This document shows, piece after piece, positions 1 through 46,526 of a DNA stretch of 64,000 nucleotides (positions are counted from its first letter, which is position 1; the number at the start of each line of letters is the position of its first letter). The DNA lies in IMG/VR virus record IMGVR_UViG_2609459792_000007; one strand, written 5' to 3'. The notes below the pieces were generated by a model. That model was not told the DNA's origin. It worked only from the letters and a program-made list of their open reading frames with translations, and made no database searches. Source of the DNA: a virus (lineage: Duplodnaviria > Heunggongvirae > Uroviricota > Caudoviricetes). Position numbers and translations under genes: made by a program.

Positions 1-1160
1 ACTTCATCGGTAAAGATATTGTTTACTTCCACAGCCTGTTCTGGCCTGCCATGCTGGAAGGCAGCAACTTCCGCAAGCCGACCAACCTGTTTGTTCACGG
101 CTATGTGACGGTGAACGGCGCGAAGATGTCCAAGTCTCGCGGCACCTTTATTAAAGCCAGCACCTGGCTGAATCATTTTGACGCCGACAGCCTGCGTTAC
201 TACTACACTGCGAAACTCTCTTCGCGCATTGATGATATCGATCTCAACCTGGAGGATTTCGTTCAGCGCGTGAATGCCGATATCGTGAACAAAGTGGTTA
301 ACCTGGCCTCCCGTAATGCAGGCTTTATCAACAAGCGTTTTGACGGCGTGCTGGCAAGCGAACTGGCTGACCCGCAACTGTACAAAACCTTTACTGATGC
401 CGCTGAAGTGATTGGCGAAGCATGGGAAAGCCGCGAATTTGGTAAAGCTATCCGTGAAATCATGGCATTGGCTGACCTGGCTAACCGCTATGTCGATGAA
501 CAGGCTCCGTGGGTGGTGGCGAAGCAGGAAGGACGCGATGCCGATCTGCAGGCGATTTGCTCTATGGGCATTAACCTGTTCCGCGTGCTGATGACGTACC
601 TGAAGCCGGTACTGCCGAAACTGACTGAACGTGCAGAAGCATTCCTGAATACAGAACTGACCTGGGATGGTATCCAGCAACCGCTGCTGGGCCATAAAGT
701 GAATCCGTTCAAGGCACTGTATAACCGCATCGATATGAAGCAGGTTGAAGCACTGGTGGAAGCATCCAAAGAAGAAGTGAAAGCCACAGCCGCACCGGTA
801 ACTGGCCCACTGGCTGACGACCCGATTCAGGAAACTATCACCTTTGACGACTTCGCCAAAGTTGACCTGCGCGTGGCGCTGATTGAAAACGCAGAGTTTG
901 TAGAAGGTTCTGACAAACTGCTTCGTCTGACGCTGGATCTCGGTGGTGAAAAGCGTAATGTCTTCTCAGGCATCCGTTCCGCTTATCCAGATCCACAGGC
1001 ACTGATTGGTCGTCACACCATTATGGTGGCTAACCTGGCACCACGTAAAATGCGCTTCGGTATCTCCGAAGGCATGGTGATGGCTGCTGGCCCCGGCGGG
1101 AAAGATATCTTCCTGTTAAGCCCGGATGCTGGTGCTAAACCAGGCCACCAGGTTAAGTAA
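1..1160 (+). CDS. metG: methionyl-tRNA synthetase, C-terminal about 385 aa (5' end outside window)
   Basis: Frame is open from position 3; translation ([20 protein letters not shown]...KMSKSRGT...GAKPGHQVK) is recognisable as enterobacterial MetG including the KMSKS motif; stop TAA at 1158-1160. Confidence 0.95.
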
Positions 1161-1321: not shown

Positions 1322-1621
1322 ATGTTGAACATTACCCAAGCCTACCAGGTGGCATTGATCAGCTCATCTCATACATCAGAGGAAGATGCTCGCCGATTCA
1401 TGATCGCAAGCAATGAGCTGGATTGGGTTTCACAAATTGAGTACGGTTGCATTGTCCACGCCGGGTTACAGGACGATGACTGGAAAGATGAGTTGCGTCG
1501 ATATGGTATATCCGAGGGCGCGATTGCGAACATTCAGAAAGTACTTGATGTAGGCTTTGACTCTGTACATTTTGATTGTGGCGCACCGGTCGTTGAAGGG
1601 CTTGAGTGCTGGCAATGGTAA
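1322..1621 (+). CDS. hypothetical small acidic protein
   Basis: ORF with RBS ggagtgg 6-8 nt upstream of ATG 1322 (ORF track starts at 1313); preceded by family A operator. Confidence 0.6.
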   Translation: MLNITQAYQVALISSSHTSEEDARRFMIASNELDWVSQIEYGCIVHAGLQDDDWKDELRRYGISEGAIANIQKVLDVGFDSVHFDCGAPVVEGLECWQW

Positions 1622-1657
1622 TCCGGCAATCGCTTCATACTAGATAACGGAGAATTT

Positions 1658-1843
1658 ATGCTTAAAGAAGACTCATATCTACTAAAGGCGCTTGAAATGC
1701 GTGGCGTTGAACCTACAGTGAAAAACGCTCACGATATCTACCTTCAGTTTTCGCCAGAGCTGAAACAGCTCATAAATAAATATGGAGTGAATGACTCCAG
1801 CGTCAAAGCCATGATAGATGATGAATTAGACCATCTCATCTAA
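1658..1843 (+). CDS. hypothetical protein (61 aa)
   Basis: ORF with RBS acggag 7 nt upstream of ATG. Confidence 0.5.
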   Translation: MLKEDSYLLKALEMRGVEPTVKNAHDIYLQFSPELKQLINKYGVNDSSVKAMIDDELDHLI

Positions 1844-1859
1844 CCAAACCGTTGATAAT

Positions 1860-2790
1860 GGCGGTCACAATTTGATTCTTTTCTATAAGAATCCGTTGAT
1901 CGCCACTACTCCCCTTCCATACCCGCAATCACATCCTTAAATATCAATAAGTTATAGTTGTTTATACAATCAAGAAAACAACTGAATAACAGATCAACGA
2001 AACGTCAACGCTTTCACCCGATTTGGTCTAAAAAATTGACGTTTTCACACATCACTGCTTATACCCGTAATTCTACGCAGCAGACAGCGCCACAGCGTCC
2101 AATTTTCACCACAGACGACCCAACACACTACCAACAAAAACACACGCTCAAAATCGTTCCCGTTGCGTTACATAACCATATAAACAACTTATTTTCAGGC
2201 ATAACAAAACAACTAAATAACACATATGCCATTACCAAAAACAACCAACCTCTTTATGGCAGGCTACCGAAAAGACCCACCTCTTCTTCCCAGGCTACCG
2301 GACAACCAACCTAACTTTCACAGGCAATCCGAAAACATTCATACGCGCGATACCCACGATACGCCATTCCCCAAATAGCGAAGCACACCAGAATCACTGA
2401 AACCCCCAACGAAGCCTGTAACCGCAAGGTTTCTCTCAATCCCAAAAGACACGAAACAGAACAATCACGGGAAACGCCATTACCCAACACACGAATAACT
2501 ACAAAAGCCTTTCACGCACTCCAGACAAACACAATAACGAAAGGAATCGCCCACCTGCCATTACTCCATATACGGAGAAGAACAATCACCAAAACGACGA
2601 GAACCCCCCATAGAAGAACCACCGCAAAACGAACGAAACCACATACACCGACAGATAAAACAACACACCCAATTCACCAACAGAAATAGTCGTCGTATAG
2701 AACGTTCTGGAAGGAGTGAGCATTAACGCCTATAGAGAGGTTGAGACAGATAAAACACGAAGAAAACACAACATGTATAGCGAAGAAGCC
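1860..2790. repeat. A+C-rich, G/T-poor non-coding tract (strong strand compositional skew)
   Basis: About 900 bp dominated by A and C on the plus strand; only a low-complexity ORF (1958-2314) with no RBS; recurring caggctaccg words. Confidence 0.6.
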
Positions 2791-2899
2791 AGGTATGTAT
2801 AAGTGGGGAGGGAAGGAGGGGTGTCGCCTCCTTTTTCGTATTTATTCAACTCCTGATTTTATCCCCCGTAACACCCCTACGGTCAGCCTTCGGTCCATA

Positions 2900-3035
2900 C
2901 AGGGAAAAGGTTGCATCCCGCTACAGAAACGGCTGGGTTGCCTTCGGGGAACGGCTGGAGGTTTTCAGGGAAACGGTCGAGTTGCCTGTGTGGATTTCGG
3001 GAGAAGGCTCGATGCCGGTTCAGGAACGGTGGCGT
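2900..3035. repeat. iteron-like direct repeats G(G/A)AACGG(C/T), about 22-bp spacing, 5 copies
   Basis: cagaaacggctgg 2924, gggaacggctgg 2947, cagggaaacggtcg 2967, gggagaaggctcg 2998, caggaacggtggc 3021. Confidence 0.6.
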
Positions 3036-3364
3036 ACCGGTATAGCGAGAGGGAGAGTTGCGGCTACCCACCTGTAATGTGCGGGAAGAAGAGAGGCGCT
3101 CACGTAGGCGGACTTGCTTACCGCTGGATTCCCTCTGAATGCCCAGCTACAGCGTAATTGTGCCAGACAGTCAGCGGGTCACAATCGATTTCAGTAGGTT
3201 TTCGGGGAGGGGATTATTCTGCCCACCAGCCATCTTCGGCCACTAAATCAGAATAATGTAAAAAGTGTACTCGATACTGAACCTGAAAACTCACTGCCAA
3301 AACAACATTCACCGGAATAAAATCCTTTTTAGCCTGTGCGTTATTGCGATAATAACACCAACGA

Positions 3365-3380
3365 GAAAACAAGTTGTTTA
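3365..3380. promoter_or_regulatory. operator-like palindrome GAAAACAAGTTGTTTA (family A)
   Basis: Sits 10 nt downstream of GATAAT (3345-3350) and just upstream of RBS aagga. Confidence 0.55.
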
Positions 3381-3391
3381 AGGATTGCTTT

Positions 3392-3721
3392 ATGTTTGCA
3401 AATATCGACATCAACCAAATCAAGAAATTAACTCAAAAAGAGTTTGATCAGTTTTATGAGTTAGAAGGTTGGTCTTCCACTCTGATCAATTCGCGGTGGG
3501 TGCTTGAGCTGATGACTCGTGATGACGCACCTGCTTTGATGATCAGCGACCTGGGTGAAGATGCTGACTTTATGGATATGAGCGAATTTTGTGTGGACAC
3601 ATACAACCGCAGCCAGAAGTACTACTTCACATGCGATAGCGAAAATGACGTGATTTCTAAGGTCTATCTTCACCTCGTCCAGCATTGGGACGTTCAGGAG
3701 TTTCTTGAAGTATTCGAGTAA
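3392..3721 (+). CDS. hypothetical small acidic protein
   Basis: ATG 3392 with RBS aagga at 3380-3384; ORF track alternative start 3374 lies inside the operator; D/E-rich translation. Confidence 0.6.
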   Translation: MFANIDINQIKKLTQKEFDQFYELEGWSSTLINSRWVLELMTRDDAPALMISDLGEDADFMDMSEFCVDTYNRSQKYYFTCDSENDVISKVYLHLVQHWDVQEFLEVFE

Positions 3722-3728
3722 CCCCAAC

Positions 3729-3757
3729 CAAAGCCAGCATTGCTGGCTTAATTTCTC
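3729..3757 (+). terminator. hairpin terminator
   Basis: aagccagc-attg-ctggctt followed by aatttctc. Confidence 0.5.
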
Positions 3758-3848
3758 TATAGCCGCAGGGAAGAACCTGCATATCGCTCATGCACCTGAT
3801 CAATATGCTTTGTAGCCGTTTTCTTACTGGTATTATTTACGCCATTGA

Positions 3849-3864
3849 GAAAACAAGTTGTTTA
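3849..3864. promoter_or_regulatory. operator-like palindrome GAAAACAAGTTGTTTA (family A)
   Basis: Downstream of TATTAT -10-like hexamer, immediately before RBS acggag. Confidence 0.55.
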
Positions 3865-3874
3865 CGGAGTTGTG

Positions 3875-4186
3875 ATGAAAAAATCATTGGTTCTTGGTCT
3901 GGACAAAGACCAGAAGAGAAAAGAGAAGCCTGCGCTGGTTGCTCAATTAACTTTGCTGGACATCGTTGCCAATGGAACCTCTATTCGTCTGTTCCGTGAA
4001 ACAGCGGTGTCTTTCGATAAAAACACCTTTACTCGTTATGTAATGAATGTTCGTCGCCAGCGTGGAAAAGGCTGGGTGGCATTTCAAAGAATGTGGCCGG
4101 AACATCAGCTCGAACTGGCTTTGATGGAAGTTAACCGCGTGGCCCAGCAAGAGATTCAGAGAGCATCAGTGATGGCAATAGCCTGA
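3875..4186 (+). CDS. hypothetical basic protein
   Basis: ATG 3875 with RBS acggag; ORF track start 3845 lies inside the operator. Confidence 0.55.
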   Translation: MKKSLVLGLDKDQKRKEKPALVAQLTLLDIVANGTSIRLFRETAVSFDKNTFTRYVMNVRRQRGKGWVAFQRMWPEHQLELALMEVNRVAQQEIQRASVMAIA

Positions 4187-4220
4187 TAATGTGCAAGTGG
4201 TAATTAGTCGACAGTACGAC

Positions 4221-4249
4221 AGCCCCGCCATCCTTACGGGGCTTTTTTG
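4221..4249 (+). terminator. rho-independent terminator
   Basis: agccccg-ccatccttac-ggggct followed by tttttt. Confidence 0.8.
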
Positions 4250-4253
4250 TATT

Positions 4254-4269
4254 GTAAGTACATACTTAC
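4254..4269. promoter_or_regulatory. palindrome GTAAGTA-CA-TACTTAC (family B, TAAGTA type)
   Basis: Perfect inverted repeat directly after the terminator and upstream of the 4313 gene. Confidence 0.5.
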
Positions 4270-4312
4270 GATCATAGAATATAAAAATAACCAAAACACT
4301 ACGGAGAGTGAA

Positions 4313-4708
4313 ATGACCGTTAAACGCGAAAAACTGACAGTTGATGTTTACTATGCCTCTGAAACCGCCGAAGGTAAGAATGTGGCAAAAATCACCGTTG
4401 TTACGTACAACACCGAAACTGGTGCCGAAGTCCAGGCCAGTACGATTGTGCGTAAAGGTGATGCCTCCGGCGGCGAGTACGCGACTCAATACCAGTCCAT
4501 TCTCGATGCAACTGACCCGCTGCTGCTGAAAATCGAGAACTACTTCCGCCAGGTTGATGAAGAGGTGTTTGAAACCATGATGAATATGGTTAACACCGTA
4601 TTCGCCTCCAGCCTGAATACCAACACTACCTGGATTGGTCAGTACGGCCTGCGCATTACCTCTGGCATTCCTGCCGACACCTTAATCCCTGAAAGCGTAT
4701 TCGCTTAA
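4313..4708 (+). CDS. hypothetical protein
   Basis: ATG 4313 with RBS ggagag 5 nt upstream. Confidence 0.65.
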   Translation: MTVKREKLTVDVYYASETAEGKNVAKITVVTYNTETGAEVQASTIVRKGDASGGEYATQYQSILDATDPLLLKIENYFRQVDEEVFETMMNMVNTVFASSLNTNTTWIGQYGLRITSGIPADTLIPESVFA

Positions 4709-4720
4709 TCCTCTTTAAAT

Positions 4721-4748
4721 GGCGCGTAAACCGCGCCATTTTATTATG
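4721..4748 (+). terminator. rho-independent terminator
   Basis: ggcgcg-taaacc-gcgcc followed by attttatt. Confidence 0.75.
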
Positions 4749-4751
4749 CCC

Positions 4752-4768
4752 GATAACAATTTGTTTTC
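4752..4768. promoter_or_regulatory. operator-like palindrome GATAACAATTTGTTTTC (family A)
   Basis: Same word plus tctgcc flank as the copy at 1244. Confidence 0.5.
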
Positions 4769-4825
4769 TGCCTTATCTGATTTGTGAAAATGATTTCACT
4801 GAAGCAACTTAATAAGGAAACCATC

Positions 4826-5200
4826 ATGGGACTTGATATCTATATCGAGACGCAGCCTAAAAACGATCTGAATAACGAGGCATCCAGAAAGCAGGTTGCT
4901 TACTTCCGTAAGTTCAATGCGCTCGTTGGGTGGATGGAGCGCAACGTAGGTGAAGTCGAAAATTGTGAGCTTTTAGAATTAACGATGAATGACATTTGTT
5001 TTCTGAAGGCTCATTTGATGCACATAAACGAAAGTAATTGCGAAGAGTACTTGCCTACCCGGGAAGGTTTTTTCTTCGGCAGTCAGGAGTACGATGAAGG
5101 TTACTGGCATGATGTGGGGCAGTTGAAAGAGCTTGTGGAAGATCTGATTAAGAACCACGACTTTCACAATAACAGACTGACCTTCTGCGCCTGGTGGTAA
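4826..5200 (+). CDS. hypothetical protein
   Basis: ATG 4826 with RBS aaggaaac; ORF track start at 4784. Confidence 0.6.
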   Translation: MGLDIYIETQPKNDLNNEASRKQVAYFRKFNALVGWMERNVGEVENCELLELTMNDICFLKAHLMHINESNCEEYLPTREGFFFGSQEYDEGYWHDVGQLKELVEDLIKNHDFHNNRLTFCAWW

Positions 5201-5202
5201 AT

Positions 5203-5346
5203 ATGGGCGATTTCAAGAAACGCCTGAAGGAAAGAGCCGAGATGGTCAGAAAGCGAAACGCCTCTTCTGTCATCAGATACGCAAGGCAGTTTAGTCGCAA
5301 CAACAAATCAGTTGAGGAAAAGATCCTTAGCGTAATCGGGCGATAA
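5203..5346 (+). CDS. possible small basic protein (47 aa), below ORF-track size cutoff
   Basis: ATG 3 nt after the upstream stop; K/R-rich translation MGDFKKRLKERAEMVRKRNA...; ends just before terminator. Confidence 0.3.
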   Translation: MGDFKKRLKERAEMVRKRNASSVIRYARQFSRNNKSVEEKILSVIGR

Positions 5347-5349
5347 TTA

Positions 5350-5377
5350 TTAAGGCCACCAGCATTGGTGGCCTTAA
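5350..5377 (+). terminator. hairpin terminator, copy 1 of a twin element
   Basis: ttaaggccacca-gcat-tggtggccttaa. Confidence 0.6.
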
Positions 5378-5501
5378 ATGACTTTTAATAACCGAAGGTT
5401 AGTTTGAAACCTGGCTATCAACTTCCAGAACCTTTCTTGTGTATTCAGCCTGTATTAACTTCTTTTATGCCTTATCTACACTGCGATAATTACACCAACA
5501 A

Positions 5502-5518
5502 GAAAACAACATGTTTAC
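5502..5518. promoter_or_regulatory. operator variant GAAAACAACATGTTTAC (family A)
   Basis: Preceded by GATAAT (5485-5490) plus tacaccaac spacer as at 3345 and 5970. Confidence 0.5.
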
Positions 5519-5535
5519 GCAGTGAGGATATGCTC

Positions 5536-5817
5536 ATGACTGATTTCACCATTACCCCTAAAGCACAAAATGTATTCCTTGAATCATGGCTGGACTTGCC
5601 GGAAACAGAACAGCAAGAAATGGATCATGTGGATTATGACGAGCAGGTAAGCACGCGATTCTTCCACTTTGAGGGCTGCGTTTACGACATTGCCGACTTC
5701 ATGCGAGATGACCGCTTCCCTGAATGGCACGCCAGTTATCCACTAAACGCCTTTGCCATGCTGATGATCCGTGTGGATGATTCAGGGGATACCATCGACA
5801 TCGGTCTGCTCCACTAA
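5536..5817 (+). CDS. hypothetical small acidic protein
   Basis: ATG 5536 with RBS gagga 7 nt upstream; D/E-rich. Confidence 0.6.
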   Translation: MTDFTITPKAQNVFLESWLDLPETEQQEMDHVDYDEQVSTRFFHFEGCVYDIADFMRDDRFPEWHASYPLNAFAMLMIRVDDSGDTIDIGLLH

Positions 5818-5820
5818 AGA

Positions 5821-5848
5821 TTAAGGCCACCAATGCTGGTGGCCTTAA
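5821..5848 (+). terminator. hairpin terminator, copy 2 of twin element (loop inverted)
   Basis: ttaaggccacca-atgc-tggtggccttaa; same stem as 5350 with loop gcat changed to atgc. Confidence 0.6.
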
Positions 5849-5986
5849 ATGACCATCCTGTTTCCCGCAGGCTAAAAACACCAACCTCTTACCTCCAGGC
5901 AACCGACAAACCCACCTGTTCCCGTCCGGCTACCGCAACTTTCCACTTTGACGCCTTATTCGTACAACGATAATTAACACCAACAA

Positions 5987-6002
5987 GAAAACAATTTGTT
6001 AT
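5987..6002. promoter_or_regulatory. sigma70-like promoter plus family A operator GAAAACAATTTGTTAT
   Basis: TTTGAC (5946-5951), 16-nt spacer, GATAAT (5968-5973), then the dyad, then RBS aagga. Confidence 0.6.
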
Positions 6003-6021
6003 TTACGATAAGGAATTAATC

Positions 6022-6504
6022 ATGAATTTTATCGCTACTGTAAACGCACCCGCACATGGCAATATCGCTGTAACGTTCTCTGACATTGAAAAACGAGTAC
6101 TTGGTGCATGGCGCGACAATGAGACGGTAGAACTGTCAGCACAAGAAAAATGCATTATTGCACGCGACATCATTGGCAATCGTCGTTACTCGCGGGTATT
6201 TGAGAAAGCGTATGTGGTAAATTCTGGGTTCGGAACGTTCGTCTTTCCGGTGCGCTCCGGGCGATTCTGCCAGTCCAAGCTGATTGAGTTCGCTACGCAG
6301 ATTTCTGTCTGGATTAAAACTCAATCGTCGTTCAAATTTTCCGACGATGAAGCAGTATCGCAGGGGATGCGGATCGCCAACAATGCGATTAAATGCAAAA
6401 ACATTACGTATACCGCTGGCGTTGACACATGGAAACTGTTTTGCGCTAACTTTATGCTGAATGTATACGCAAGCAACCGCATCCACATCCTTGATGGCGT
6501 GTAA
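6022..6504 (+). CDS. hypothetical protein (160 aa)
   Basis: ATG with RBS aaggaa; preceded by promoter/operator module. Confidence 0.65.
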   Translation: MNFIATVNAPAHGNIAVTFSDIEKRVLGAWRDNETVELSAQEKCIIARDIIGNRRYSRVFEKAYVVNSGFGTFVFPVRSGRFCQSKLIEFATQISVWIKTQSSFKFSDDEAVSQGMRIANNAIKCKNITYTAGVDTWKLFCANFMLNVYASNRIHILDGV

Positions 6505-6513
6505 CTGAGAAGA

Positions 6514-6535
6514 GGGCCAGAAACGGCCCTTTCTC
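6514..6535 (+). terminator. hairpin terminator
   Basis: gggcc-agaaac-ggccc followed by tttctc. Confidence 0.6.
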
Positions 6536-6553
6536 TATAGCCACCAGCTGCCG

Positions 6554-6633
6554 CAGGGAAATTTTCAGAAACGGCGAGGAACGTATTCATGAGCCGACGG
6601 GAAACGGCCAGGATTTTTTCGGGAAACGGCTGC
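6554..6633. repeat. second iteron-like cluster TTTTC(A/G)GGAAACGGC
   Basis: cagaaacggcgagg 6566, cgggaaacggccagg 6598, cgggaaacggctgc 6620; last two exactly 22 bp apart. Confidence 0.55.
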
Positions 6634-7088
6634 ATTCGCCTTTATGTAGAAAAAACATCGGGAAGCTGGTGGAATCCAACCAGCGGTTGTCGGACAGGCG
6701 AGCGGGGAAAATTATGATGACTTTCGTCGCCTGATACATCCAGATTTCTTTCGTAGCGTAATCACATACGTGATTAAGTGGTGTGATTATGTGAAAAATC
6801 ACGCGCACATAATACGCGAGCGGACACAGAACAACACAAAATGCCGATCCGCGCCGACAAATAAACGCGGATCACATAGCAAGACTAAAAGCCAATGATT
6901 AACCATACGCTATAGCGCAATATAACGCGTTTTAAGCGCGTTAATGTGTTAAGTAATGGGTATGTACTGGCAAGGATATAAAAGCGCGTCTATGGCGTTA
7001 TTTTGGCGCTTATTTTTATGTTGTTGGAGTGAGTTAAAGACAATAAAAAACGCCCCATCATGGGCGGGTTATGGGGGGAGTATTGAAA

Positions 7089-7128
7089 AAAAAAAAAGCG
7101 CCCATGGGGGGCGCTCGATTTTATTTGT
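7089..7128. terminator. bidirectional hairpin terminator
   Basis: A-run, gcgccc-catgg-ggggcgc, T-run; ends the minus-strand 8274-7121 operon. Confidence 0.7.
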
Positions 7129-7623: not shown

Positions 7624-8274
7624 TTACGCTTTGAAAGCATCAGCTAAATAATTGTAGAAATCATTTTTAATGAAGCGATATTGCTGAGTACCAGCTTTCG
7701 CGCTCCCAGCTCCTTTGACTTTTTCAACAAGTCCAAGACGTTCGCAAAGATTGATCAACTGGTTGGCTTGAGTATAGCCAGCGTCCAATTTAATTTCACA
7801 CGCTTTTTTAGCTTCATTCATTAAATCGAAAACAGCGCCATTAGTGAACGTGTCGATCTCGTCGTTAATCATATCGATTAAAGCGAATACACGAGATCCT
7901 GACATATCAGCGACGGAATAAACACATTTGCCAGCTTTAATGGATTTAACCAGATAAACCAGTTTTTCCAGAGAATAACTATTAGTCATTGCATCACGGA
8001 AAAATACTTCTGGCGCTTGTTTGCTTGCTTTAATCGCATAGTAGAAAACAGAGCATAATTTTTCGTCTTCTACAGCGTTTACAACGTTGTTGATGAAGTA
8101 AGCAAGTTTAGTGGTCGCAGCTTGCATATTTGCTTTGTCTGCTTTAGTGTGCGTACCATTTTTATAATGTTCATTATATGTTTGAGTTGCCAGATCTGCT
8201 TTTTCGCGCAGTTCATCGGATACAATGGAAGCAGCTTCAACGATGGATTTTTTAGAAATGATAATGTTAGCCAT
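7624..8274 (-). CDS. hypothetical protein (216 aa)
   Basis: Long ORF in AT-rich block; no recognisable motif. Confidence 0.6.
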   Translation of the reverse strand: MANIIISKKSIVEAASIVSDELREKADLATQTYNEHYKNGTHTKADKANMQAATTKLAYFINNVVNAVEDEKLCSVFYYAIKASKQAPEVFFRDAMTNSYSLEKLVYLVKSIKAGKCVYSVADMSGSRVFALIDMINDEIDTFTNGAVFDLMNEAKKACEIKLDAGYTQANQLINLCERLGLVEKVKGAGSAKAGTQQYRFIKNDFYNYLADAFKA

Positions 8275-8870: not shown

Positions 8871-9395
8871 TCAAAAAGGCAAAATTCGTTCAACCCAATC
8901 GAACAAAACAACTATTTTTCTACCGTTCTCGACACGTAGTGTAACCTGACAAGCATCTGCGCCTGCTGACACCCCCTCAATTTCACGGCCATCCGCCATG
9001 TACACCCTTATAGATTTGTTTGCTTTGTAGGCTTGGTTGCAAATTGCAAAAAAATCGCGGCGTGATGGCCGATTATCGACATAATCAGGGTGAACTGTTA
9101 GTCGACCTTTGAAATCGTGAGCGATACTGTCAACCACACCTGATTCAATTGTACTAATGCGTTCAAGTGGGAGCCTTATACGATTTTCTTTGTCAAAAGG
9201 GGCTGGGCAAAGGTCAACTTTGTTACGAGATGGCATGAGGCCATAAACGTACATGCAAAACGCCTGGCCATCTTCGAGAGTGACCCTTACAGGAATTTGT
9301 TCTCTGCGCCAGAACATCAGTAGTTTTTCAACGTTAGTGTAATCTCGCGGCCAGAGTTCAGCTTGGATACCGTAGGTAATATCTTTGGTTGTCAT
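8871..9395 (-). CDS. hypothetical protein
   Basis: ORF; likely start MTTKD at 9395 overlapping upstream stop. Confidence 0.5.
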   Translation of the reverse strand: MTTKDITYGIQAELWPRDYTNVEKLLMFWRREQIPVRVTLEDGQAFCMYVYGLMPSRNKVDLCPAPFDKENRIRLPLERISTIESGVVDSIAHDFKGRLTVHPDYVDNRPSRRDFFAICNQAYKANKSIRVYMADGREIEGVSAGADACQVTLRVENGRKIVVLFDWVERILPF

Positions 9396-9399
9396 GTCA

Positions 9400-9822
9400 T
9401 CACAGAGTTGTTGGCAGAATGTCGATGTCACCAGAATTGCTGGTGAACACCCTGAACGCTTTTGTGTCTCCATTCTTCAGAGTCGTTTCTCGCTCTTGAC
9501 GAGCGGGGTTTAGAGCACATAAACCTGCACCTTCAAGAGATGCACCCACAATTAATTCTCCGGCATTTAAATGGAAAGTCGCTTTTTCGCCTGTAGCCAG
9601 TTTTGCGACAGTTTCGCCATTGATGAAAATGGAAGCATCACATCCAGCTCCTACAAAACCTGTGTCTCTCATTACCACCAACGTAGCTGGCGCTGCGCTT
9701 TGATACTTGAACACTTTGGCCTGCGGTGCTGGTTTGGCGTCATGGATTGATATTGGACGTGATTGGCACGCGGTAAGCATCAACACTGGTAACGTTAGTA
9801 GAGGGAGAAGCGAGTATTTCAT
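9400..9822 (-). CDS. putative lipoprotein
   Basis: MKYSLLPLLTLPVLMLTAC: signal peptide with lipobox LTAC. Confidence 0.6.
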   Translation of the reverse strand: MKYSLLPLLTLPVLMLTACQSRPISIHDAKPAPQAKVFKYQSAAPATLVVMRDTGFVGAGCDASIFINGETVAKLATGEKATFHLNAGELIVGASLEGAGLCALNPARQERETTLKNGDTKAFRVFTSNSGDIDILPTTL

Positions 9823-45857: not shown

Positions 45858-46526
45858 ATGACCAAGATCTTTGTGGTTGGCGGCACAAAGGGCGGGCCTG
45901 GCAAATCCACCGTTGCCCAGCAAATTGCCGTTTGCCTGAAAGTCAAAAAGAAGAAGAAGGTTTATATCACTGATATAGATATTCAGCGCACGACAACAAG
46001 CTGGTGTGAAGACCGTCGACAGAACGAAGACCTTGAGCTGATTCCTTTTGCATACGTTCAGGATGACATCATTAAGCACCTAAAATCGCTTCAGGGTAGA
46101 GCTGAGTTTGTAGTGGTAGATGCTGGTGGCTTTGACTCCGAAATTCAGCGACAAGCGATGCTGATGGCCGACGTTATCATTATCCCGCTTCGTCCTAAGC
46201 GTCGTGATTTGAAATCTCTGCGTGACATCGATCCTATTATCGACAATGTTCGTAATGTAAACGATAAAGTGAAGGTCCGCGCGGTCATGAACCAGTGCCC
46301 GGCTTTGCCATCACAAGTGTCTCGCATTCTGGCGGCTAAAGAGATTGTCGAGACGTTTGGCATCGAGTCTGCGCCAGTCAATCTATATAACCGCAACGTC
46401 TACGATGATGCGGAAGAGTCAGGTCGTTCTATCTTTGAAATGACCGGTAGCGAGCGCGACAAAAAGGCGGAAGCCGAGTTTGAAGAATTTGTAGATTATC
46501 TGTTGAGTCTGGAGGAAGAAGAATAA
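45858..46526 (+). CDS. ParA/MinD-family partition ATPase (small type)
   Basis: Deviant Walker A GGTKGGPGKST; about 220 aa. Confidence 0.8.
   Translation: MTKIFVVGGTKGGPGKSTVAQQIAVCLKVKKKKKVYITDIDIQRTTTSWCEDRRQNEDLELIPFAYVQDDIIKHLKSLQGRAEFVVVDAGGFDSEIQRQAMLMADVIIIPLRPKRRDLKSLRDIDPIIDNVRNVNDKVKVRAVMNQCPALPSQVSRILAAKEIVETFGIESAPVNLYNRNVYDDAEESGRSIFEMTGSERDKKAEAEFEEFVDYLLSLEEEE

Follow-up and report, generated by a model that had tools for sequence, protein, structure and literature searches.

What are the short direct repeats at 2900-3035 of this phage-like DNA, and does their arrangement mark an origin of replication? A first-pass annotation, made from the sequence alone, had described them as five copies of the core GGAAACGG at 22-bp spacing and had read them as iterons bound by a replication initiator. 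Here we analysed the locus in the context of the whole 64,000-nucleotide (64-kb) stretch of the Caudoviricetes record IMGVR_UViG_2609459792_000007, hereafter the window, and of its relatives. Positions 1800-3400 of the window match Escherichia phage Cyrano, the phage-plasmid of strain LF82, at 96%, and also CMS-2020a and PhiR41_1. A further 840 PLSDB plasmid records match at 66-77% identity, from Klebsiella, Escherichia, Enterobacter, Salmonella (including pHCM2), Citrobacter and Cronobacter, in which this stretch is mostly unannotated; phage SSU5 also matches the locus. On the basis of these matches to Cyrano, CMS-2020a, PhiR41_1, SSU5 and pHCM2-type plasmids, we take the element to be a ~108-kb E. 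coli phage-plasmid of the SSU5/pHCM2 type, and the sister plasmid pEC881_2 (109 kb, 96% identical) was used for comparison. Partial matches to the locus in large Klebsiella plasmids are IS-flanked fragments and were set aside. The variable accessory region of the window contains a partial methionyl-tRNA synthetase gene, metG (51-1160, plus strand), which is adjoined in relatives by an ApbC/Mrp-like gene, outside the window. Phage-plasmids of the SSU5/pHCM2 type are frequent in clinical Escherichia, Salmonella, Klebsiella and Enterobacter, and some carry resistance genes; almost nothing is known of how they switch between plasmid life and the lytic mode. A search of the literature on SSU5/pHCM2 origins, iterons or sRNAs found nothing on the array locus.

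The repeats form an array (array 1) of six direct motif copies on the plus strand at 2903-3029, with the consensus CRGRAAMGG(C). The copies start at 2903 (GGAAAAGG), 2925 (AGAAACGG), 2947 (GGGAACGG), 2969 (GGAAACGG), 3000 (GGAGAAGG) and 3022 (AGGAACGG), so that successive starts are 22, 22, 22, 31 and 22 nt apart. The 22-bp spacing first described therefore holds for most of the array, but there are six copies rather than five and one gap measures 31 nt; similarly, a common core is indeed repeated, but as the degenerate consensus, the exact GGAAACGG being present in only one of the six copies, that at 2969. The string GRAAMGG occurs 16 times on the plus strand of the window, with five occurrences within 2904-3023 and four within 6520-6623. 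In 5000 local, dinucleotide-preserving shuffles of 2880-3060, it was found 0.21 times on average and three times at most, and the observed five were never reached (0/5000). A position weight matrix (PWM) derived from ten sites has ~12-13 informative positions, roughly TTCRGGAAACGGCTGG, and gives the array copies 15-25 bits, no other site in the window reaching more than 13.8 bits. Since the spacers are unlike each other, standard repeat searches largely miss the array: TRF reported no tandem array at this position and a generic repeat finder returned a single pair at 44-nt spacing.

A second cluster of the same short core, array 2, lies 3.6 kb away at 6519-6630, in the same orientation. Its strong copies are at 6519, 6567, 6600 and 6622, and weaker copies are found outside or between them at ~6547, 6578, 6660 and 6704, the spacing to the weak copies being 27-28 and 37-38 nt (imperfect helical phasing). 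In the first 100 kb of the 109-kb pEC881_2, the two arrays are the only clusters of the motif. Array 2 follows g7, the last gene of the rightward early operon, in an intergenic region between convergent genes, and its first motif copy forms the loop of the g7 terminator hairpin (6513-6537, plus strand; GGGCC-AGAAAC-GGCCC-TTTCTCT). In other lineages the stem of this terminator reads GGGGC/GCCCC or GCGTC/GGCGC around a constant (G/A)GAAAC, i.e. the loop is kept with covarying stems across four lineages. Array 1 also follows a terminator-like hairpin with a T-run (2810-2837, plus strand), seen both in a scan and in the alignment, which ends ~65 nt upstream of the array and is kept in relatives through G-U-compatible changes. 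Both arrays are thus found directly behind terminator hairpins, either before the next promoter or where transcription units converge. The remainder of the convergent intergenic region beyond array 2 (6740-7120) is conserved across lineages and is dense in ACGCG/GCGC-containing inverted repeats and GATC sites; it also contains an A12 run (7085-7097) and a back-to-back pair of terminator hairpins.

The first-pass annotation had named absence of the repeats from relatives as the outcome that would count against it, and the opposite was found. Both arrays are present in every relative with enough sequence, the Serratia lineage L060/L061 excluded: in Escherichia, Salmonella (pHCM2 and SSU5), Enterobacter, Kluyvera and Klebsiella, as well as in a 145-kb K. 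quasipneumoniae element and in metagenomic contigs. The spacing pattern of array 1 recurs across ~45 related loci, as 22/22/22/31/22 in Escherichia, Salmonella, Enterobacter and Kluyvera and as 22/22/22 in Klebsiella; one relative (L059) shows a 26-nt spacing, and the distant relative L062 has a period of ~11-12 nt. Spacings between strong sites are mostly multiples of ~11 nt (22, 31-33, 44) and, together with the period in L062, fit sites lying on one face of B-DNA. Cores are better conserved than spacers, with identities of 0.90 versus 0.57 between E. coli lineages A and B and of 0.73 versus 0.34 between E. coli and Klebsiella. Unit number also changes, PhiR41_1 being without exactly one 22-nt unit and L039 without about three. 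Conserved cores and spacing, diverging spacers and changing unit number together are the mark of selection on short sites and on the distance between them. Array 1 is therefore a genuine conserved cis-element, and it makes up, with array 2, a pair of phased arrays that delimit the early-gene cassette.

The two arrays bracket the early operon, a run of small plus-strand genes at 3392-6504 that match only PHROGs of no assigned function. The distance between the arrays ranges from ~1.5 to 4.5 kb among relatives, indicating that they flank a variable cassette region. Array 1 ends ~310 nt upstream of the first early promoter, in which a palindrome comes after an invariant extended -10 element, TTGCGATAAT. 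This palindromic, operator-like site, AGAAAACAAnnTGTTTA, precedes most early genes. Allowing up to three mismatches, it occurs 31 times in the window against ~3 expected, including at 1244, 1293, 2181, 3364, 3848, 4753, 5501, 5986, 15102, 15127, 45807 and 48737, mostly just downstream of TTGCGATAAT and before early genes and the ParA-like gene. It looks like the operator of the early promoters, and it is probably the operator of a global repressor.

Upstream of array 1 lies an 850-bp, A+C-rich, conserved non-coding tract (1852-2700, plus strand), the skewed tract beside which the repeats had been correctly placed at first reading. The tract has a GC skew of -0.4 to -0.5 and an AT skew of up to +0.58, and shows 66-73% identity from E. 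coli to Salmonella and Klebsiella. Within it are repeats of the GCCATTAC type at 2228, 2363, 2476 and 2557 (~4-6 copies of a GCCATTAC(C/T)..ACGGAGAAGAAC-type repeat), three 31-nt tandem repeats (2239-2330) and one operator-like palindrome (2181-2197). Its left edge at ~1852, marked by an accessory-gene insertion in pUTAK-6-1, is a hot spot of such insertions. As RNA, the tract would be unstructured and an ideal Rho-loading (rut-like) region. The array locus as a whole belongs to a ~1.4-kb non-coding block that is conserved across genera and is usually unannotated or mis-annotated as hypothetical ORFs. A separate motif, (C/T)GTATAG(A/C)GAR with a purine run after it, is found beside the arrays and the terminator, at 2696, 2730, 2775, 2799 and 3040 (plus strand) and at 3753 and 6531 (minus strand), and is kept in distant relatives (for example, CCGTTATAGGGAG in L062). 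It resembles the promoter start of single-subunit RNA polymerases (TATAG plus GGGAGA); no such polymerase was found among the annotated genes in the first 100 kb of pEC881_2.

As the first-pass annotation had also proposed, the repeats lie outside any convincing gene. Indels of 1, 1, 2, 9, 10, 21 and 22 nt separate relatives inside the array, the Klebsiella copies have stops in all three plus-strand frames, and PGAP leaves the array stretch unannotated in most plasmids. An ORF over array 1 (2741-3157) is annotated in Cyrano as CYRAN_104, and two phage records place hypothetical CDSs over the A+C tract and the array (Cyrano, OV696614, 94381-94737 and 95227-95631; PhiR41_1, PV340561, 30643-31029 and 31554-31823). 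These CDSs are very likely spurious because their frames are not conserved and expression is at background. Indeed, in RNA-seq of LF82, the host of Cyrano, expression of the array ORF is close to background (log2 ~3-4.6; PMC9928086) and that of the ORF over the A+C tract is at the floor (PMC9928086, S1 table), with an accessory gene just upstream standing ~6-fold over local background (PMC9928086). The array region is nearly silent in the lysogen. RNA structure was also sought. There was no Rfam match at E<1 over 1500-4500, the RNAalifold consensus of 12 diverse sequences was very weak (21 pairs, -10.9 kcal/mol over 214 columns), and folding of the array showed no excess over shuffles on either strand (z = -0.32 and -0.20). 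On the results of Rfam, RNAalifold and the single-sequence folds of both strands, we rejected a structured RNA at array 1.

Which protein might recognise the motif? One candidate is encoded 2.2 kb from array 2 by an FljA-family gene (8871-9392 or 8871-9473, minus strand; 'repressor of phase-1 flagellin'; Pfam PF03614, E 2.5e-84), the product of which has a predicted fold of two tandem Sm/Hfq-like domains. The gene belongs to the core set of SSU5-like phage-plasmids and is found in all array-bearing relatives, including the Klebsiella plasmids; between elements that are otherwise close and keep one and the same motif, its alleles vary in identity from 100% to 28%. For the translation block that FljA exerts on fliC, PMC2652032 cites Bonifield and Hughes (2003) and Yamamoto and Kutsukake (2006); our literature search found no papers describing FljA binding, and FljA-like genes, sought in other phage groups as an independent test case, were absent from the phage collection. 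A second candidate is a 216-aa protein (p216; 7624-8274, minus strand) with a C-terminal winged-helix DNA-binding domain. It is the weaker candidate because it is kept in the Serratia relative that is without both arrays. That lineage (L060/L061) retains the 216-aa protein, a DEAD-box helicase and the A+C block; it is without the FljA-family gene, g7 and both arrays, and no small gene was called after p216. The g7 gene (6022-6504, plus strand; 160 aa, PHROG 1641), directly upstream of array 2, thus co-occurs with the arrays as well. Because this Serratia lineage is also without g7 and the small genes that otherwise follow p216, co-occurrence cannot single out FljA.

A likeness to the known FljA target was also noted. 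In the 5'UTR sequence of E. coli fliC, a hairpin GGGU-GGAA-ACCC can be read, and the array 2 unit GAGCCGACGGGAAACGG, as found in the E. coli lineage, has an 11-mer plus GAAAC in common with this UTR. The 11-mer is absent from pHCM2 and the Klebsiella relatives, which read GAACCGAAGGG, and by our estimate ~1.6 such matches are expected by chance in the window. The array PWM does not recognise the fliC UTR (best score -0.4 bits). We therefore regard the likeness as a lead rather than a test; striking as the shared 11-mer looked, a link to fliC through it is weakened by its absence from other lineages and the failure of the PWM on the UTR.

How, then, should the arrays be read? That they reflect chance composition, or part of a small protein gene such as the ORF 2741-3157 (CYRAN_104), is scarcely credible: open frames are present, in keeping with the G-richness of the stretch, and two phage records call a hypothetical CDS there, but the frame-breaking indels, the Klebsiella stops and the mostly missing PGAP annotation speak against coding and the shuffles exclude chance. 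It is also very improbable that the arrays belong to a structured non-coding RNA acting as a CsrB/RsmZ-like GGA sponge. The regular GGA-containing repeats and the UUCG-type tetraloop sequences nearby would suit such an RNA, but the GGA motifs lie outside hairpin loops and neither Rfam, nor conservation of structure, nor folding of either strand lends it support. As to replication, the arrays are not the plasmid replication origin. In pEC881_2, repA, encoding an initiator of the RepB family, is located at 82,246-83,460, and directly downstream of it are the RepA iterons, 11 copies of (G/C)RTATGCTRTCAGCGGT in two groups (83,459-83,997, equivalent to 33459-33997 of L009). Together they lie ~34 kb from the array locus, outside the window, and the iterons share nothing with GGAAACGG; RepA iterons were accordingly rejected as the identity of the arrays. 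There is hardly any probability left for the arrays as an extra set of RepA iterons, a copy-control or handcuffing locus like incA of P1, for which only the generic direct-repeat arrangement at ~22 bp can be cited, against the true and unrelated set of 11 beside repA. The iteron-like arrangement itself stands, as direct repeats in one orientation, about two helical turns apart and non-coding; the claim that they bind an initiator fares less well, with repA and its own iterons so far away and no initiator-type gene beside either array among the flanking genes.

That the arrays form an origin used in the lytic mode deserves separate consideration. On that reading they would serve a phage-mode initiator as iterons, the two clusters working like ori and crr of phage P4, a precedent for a bipartite origin, and the A+C tract would be the unwinding or R-loop zone. 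The iteron-like architecture, in which an 8-12-bp core is grouped into two clusters separated by 3.6 kb, agrees with this, as does the adjacent 850-bp tract with its strong GC skew. Moreover, a DnaB-like helicase, a primase, DnaE and RNase HI are all encoded by the element itself, although no lytic origin is annotated. We nevertheless consider it unlikely. Neither array adjoins an initiator-type gene, and the genes for the DnaB-like helicase and the primase are separate and lie far from both. DnaA boxes show no enrichment (5 in the 64-kb window versus 7.5 expected, none beside array 1), and no marked AT-rich unwinding stretch is found next to array 1, the GC content being 0.55-0.59 over the array and 0.43-0.47 in the flanks. 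The arrays sit directly after terminators, on either side of a hypervariable early-gene cassette. No origin emerges from cumulative GC skew, but such mapping is uninformative here because gene orientation dominates the skew. Two further roles for the locus were rejected. A partition centromere is unlikely since the ParA/MinD-type ATPase gene (45858-46526) lies ~40 kb from the arrays. A packaging site or genome end does not agree with the internal position of the locus in the SSU5 record (90.4-91.7 of 103.3 kb), an observation that bears on packaging rather than on an origin; the terminase genes are ~12 kb from the array locus.

A reading at the RNA level is possible, although on the doubtful side. 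The plus-strand string (G/A)GAAAC(GG) would be read in transcripts by the FljA-family tandem-Sm protein, the transcripts being early-operon 3' ends and read-through of both terminators, and the arrays would be regulatory targets or decoys. Binding might affect 3'-end stability of the early-operon mRNA, termination, or titration of the protein, loosely like CsrA/CsrB. In its specific form, in which the arrays are transcribed on induction and serve the FljA-family protein as RNA target or decoy in a CsrA/CsrB-type pair, we hold the idea to be doubtful. What speaks for an RNA platform is the FljA-family gene so close to array 2, its retention in every array-bearing relative, and its absence from the lone lineage, Serratia L060/L061, that is without both arrays. 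Klebsiella is non-motile, so that keeping an FljA-family gene in its plasmids makes a phage-borne target plausible. Every motif copy also reads in the same sense as the transcription units on either side, the g7 terminator loop GGAAAC with its covarying stems recalls the fliC 5'UTR hairpin, and GAGCCGACGGGAAACGG shares its 11-mer plus GAAAC with that UTR. A passage in PMC2652032 states that FljA proteins block translation of fliC mRNA. Against an RNA platform, the PWM and the lineage distribution of the 11-mer weaken the fliC likeness, most copies are outside hairpins and structure is not conserved, and the arrays follow terminators and show hardly any transcription in lysogens. Furthermore, the motif remains constant over the full range of divergence of the FljA-like protein, and the same Serratia lineage is without g7 and the small genes after p216. 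If true, however, an RNA pair of this kind would link phage early-gene control to a regulator otherwise known only as a flagellin translational repressor and would explain why the gene is retained in plasmids of non-motile Klebsiella; an FljA-like Sm protein that reads the arrays would give the family a second, phage-internal function.

The interpretation we favour, tentatively and at somewhat less than even probability, is that the arrays are double-stranded DNA sites for an element-encoded protein and act as a boundary or regulator of the early cassette. The motif is clustered, in one orientation and in two arrays only; cores and spacing are under selection and spacers are not; whole units have been lost and RNA structure is lacking; the arrays sit behind terminators and are near-silent in LF82 RNA-seq; and the segment between them is the variable cassette region of 1.5-4.5 kb. 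All of these favour DNA sites. We infer that a sequence-specific protein of the phage-plasmid would bind the double-stranded DNA of both arrays, cooperatively along one helix face in array 1 and its twin. The resulting nucleoprotein complexes, possibly bridged into a loop, would bound and regulate the early-gene cassette, insulating it on its upstream side from accessory genes that are transcribed constitutively and on its downstream side from the convergent operon, and may help to silence it or to time its expression. Several observations weigh against DNA sites. The nearest co-occurring nucleic-acid binder, of the FljA family, has an RNA-binding fold and precedent, and the only clear DNA-binding fold nearby, that of the 216-aa protein, is kept in the array-less Serratia relative. 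Phasing is imperfect in array 2 (27-28 and 37-38 nt) and in L059 (26 nt). A motif copy in a terminator loop with covarying stems would be equally natural for an RNA-level signal. Whichever protein reads the arrays, finding it would open a way into early-gene control of the SSU5/pHCM2 family, perhaps also into its lytic replication, and would correct spurious CDS calls.

To conclude, we compare the arrays with systems that they resemble in part. Like the operator of FljA in the 5'UTR of fliC mRNA, they contain the string GGAAAC and display one copy as the loop of a hairpin; GAGCCGACGGG..GAAAC is common to the UTR and to one E. coli-lineage unit, and an FljA-family gene is nearby. However, the arrays are multi-copy, mostly unstructured and placed behind terminators rather than by a ribosome-binding site or in a 5'UTR, and their PWM fails to recognise the fliC UTR. 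With sponge RNAs of the CsrB/RsmZ type they have in common many GGA-containing repeats at regular short intervals, but not the hairpin presentation, an Rfam match or an abundant transcript in LF82 RNA-seq (PMC9928086). Centromere arrays such as parC/ParR of R1 and tubC/TubR of pBtoxis are read by RHH or winged-helix adaptors; here the ParA/MinD-type ATPase is ~40 kb away, no TubZ or ParM gene was seen among the flanking genes checked, and the winged-helix protein persists in a relative without arrays. The origin iterons of plasmids, i.e. the RepA, pi or TrfA sites of pSC101, R6K, RK2, P1 and F, are alike in being non-coding, multi-copy direct repeats in one orientation at ~22-bp spacing, but the arrays conserve only ~12-13 of the 22 bp per unit and are without an adjacent cognate initiator gene, DnaA boxes or an AT-rich DUE. 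The RepFIB-type iterons of the element itself are likewise similar in their direct-repeat arrangement and differ in sequence and in site, ~34 kb off. In ori and crr of phage P4, two clusters of the octamer TGTTCACC are bound by the alpha primase-helicase. The P4 iterons occur in both orientations, whereas the arrays keep to one and no alpha-like initiator was identified in the element; the two systems are nevertheless alike in having a short 8-bp core, in its grouping into two clusters kilobases apart, and in residing on an element of the phage-plasmid type.
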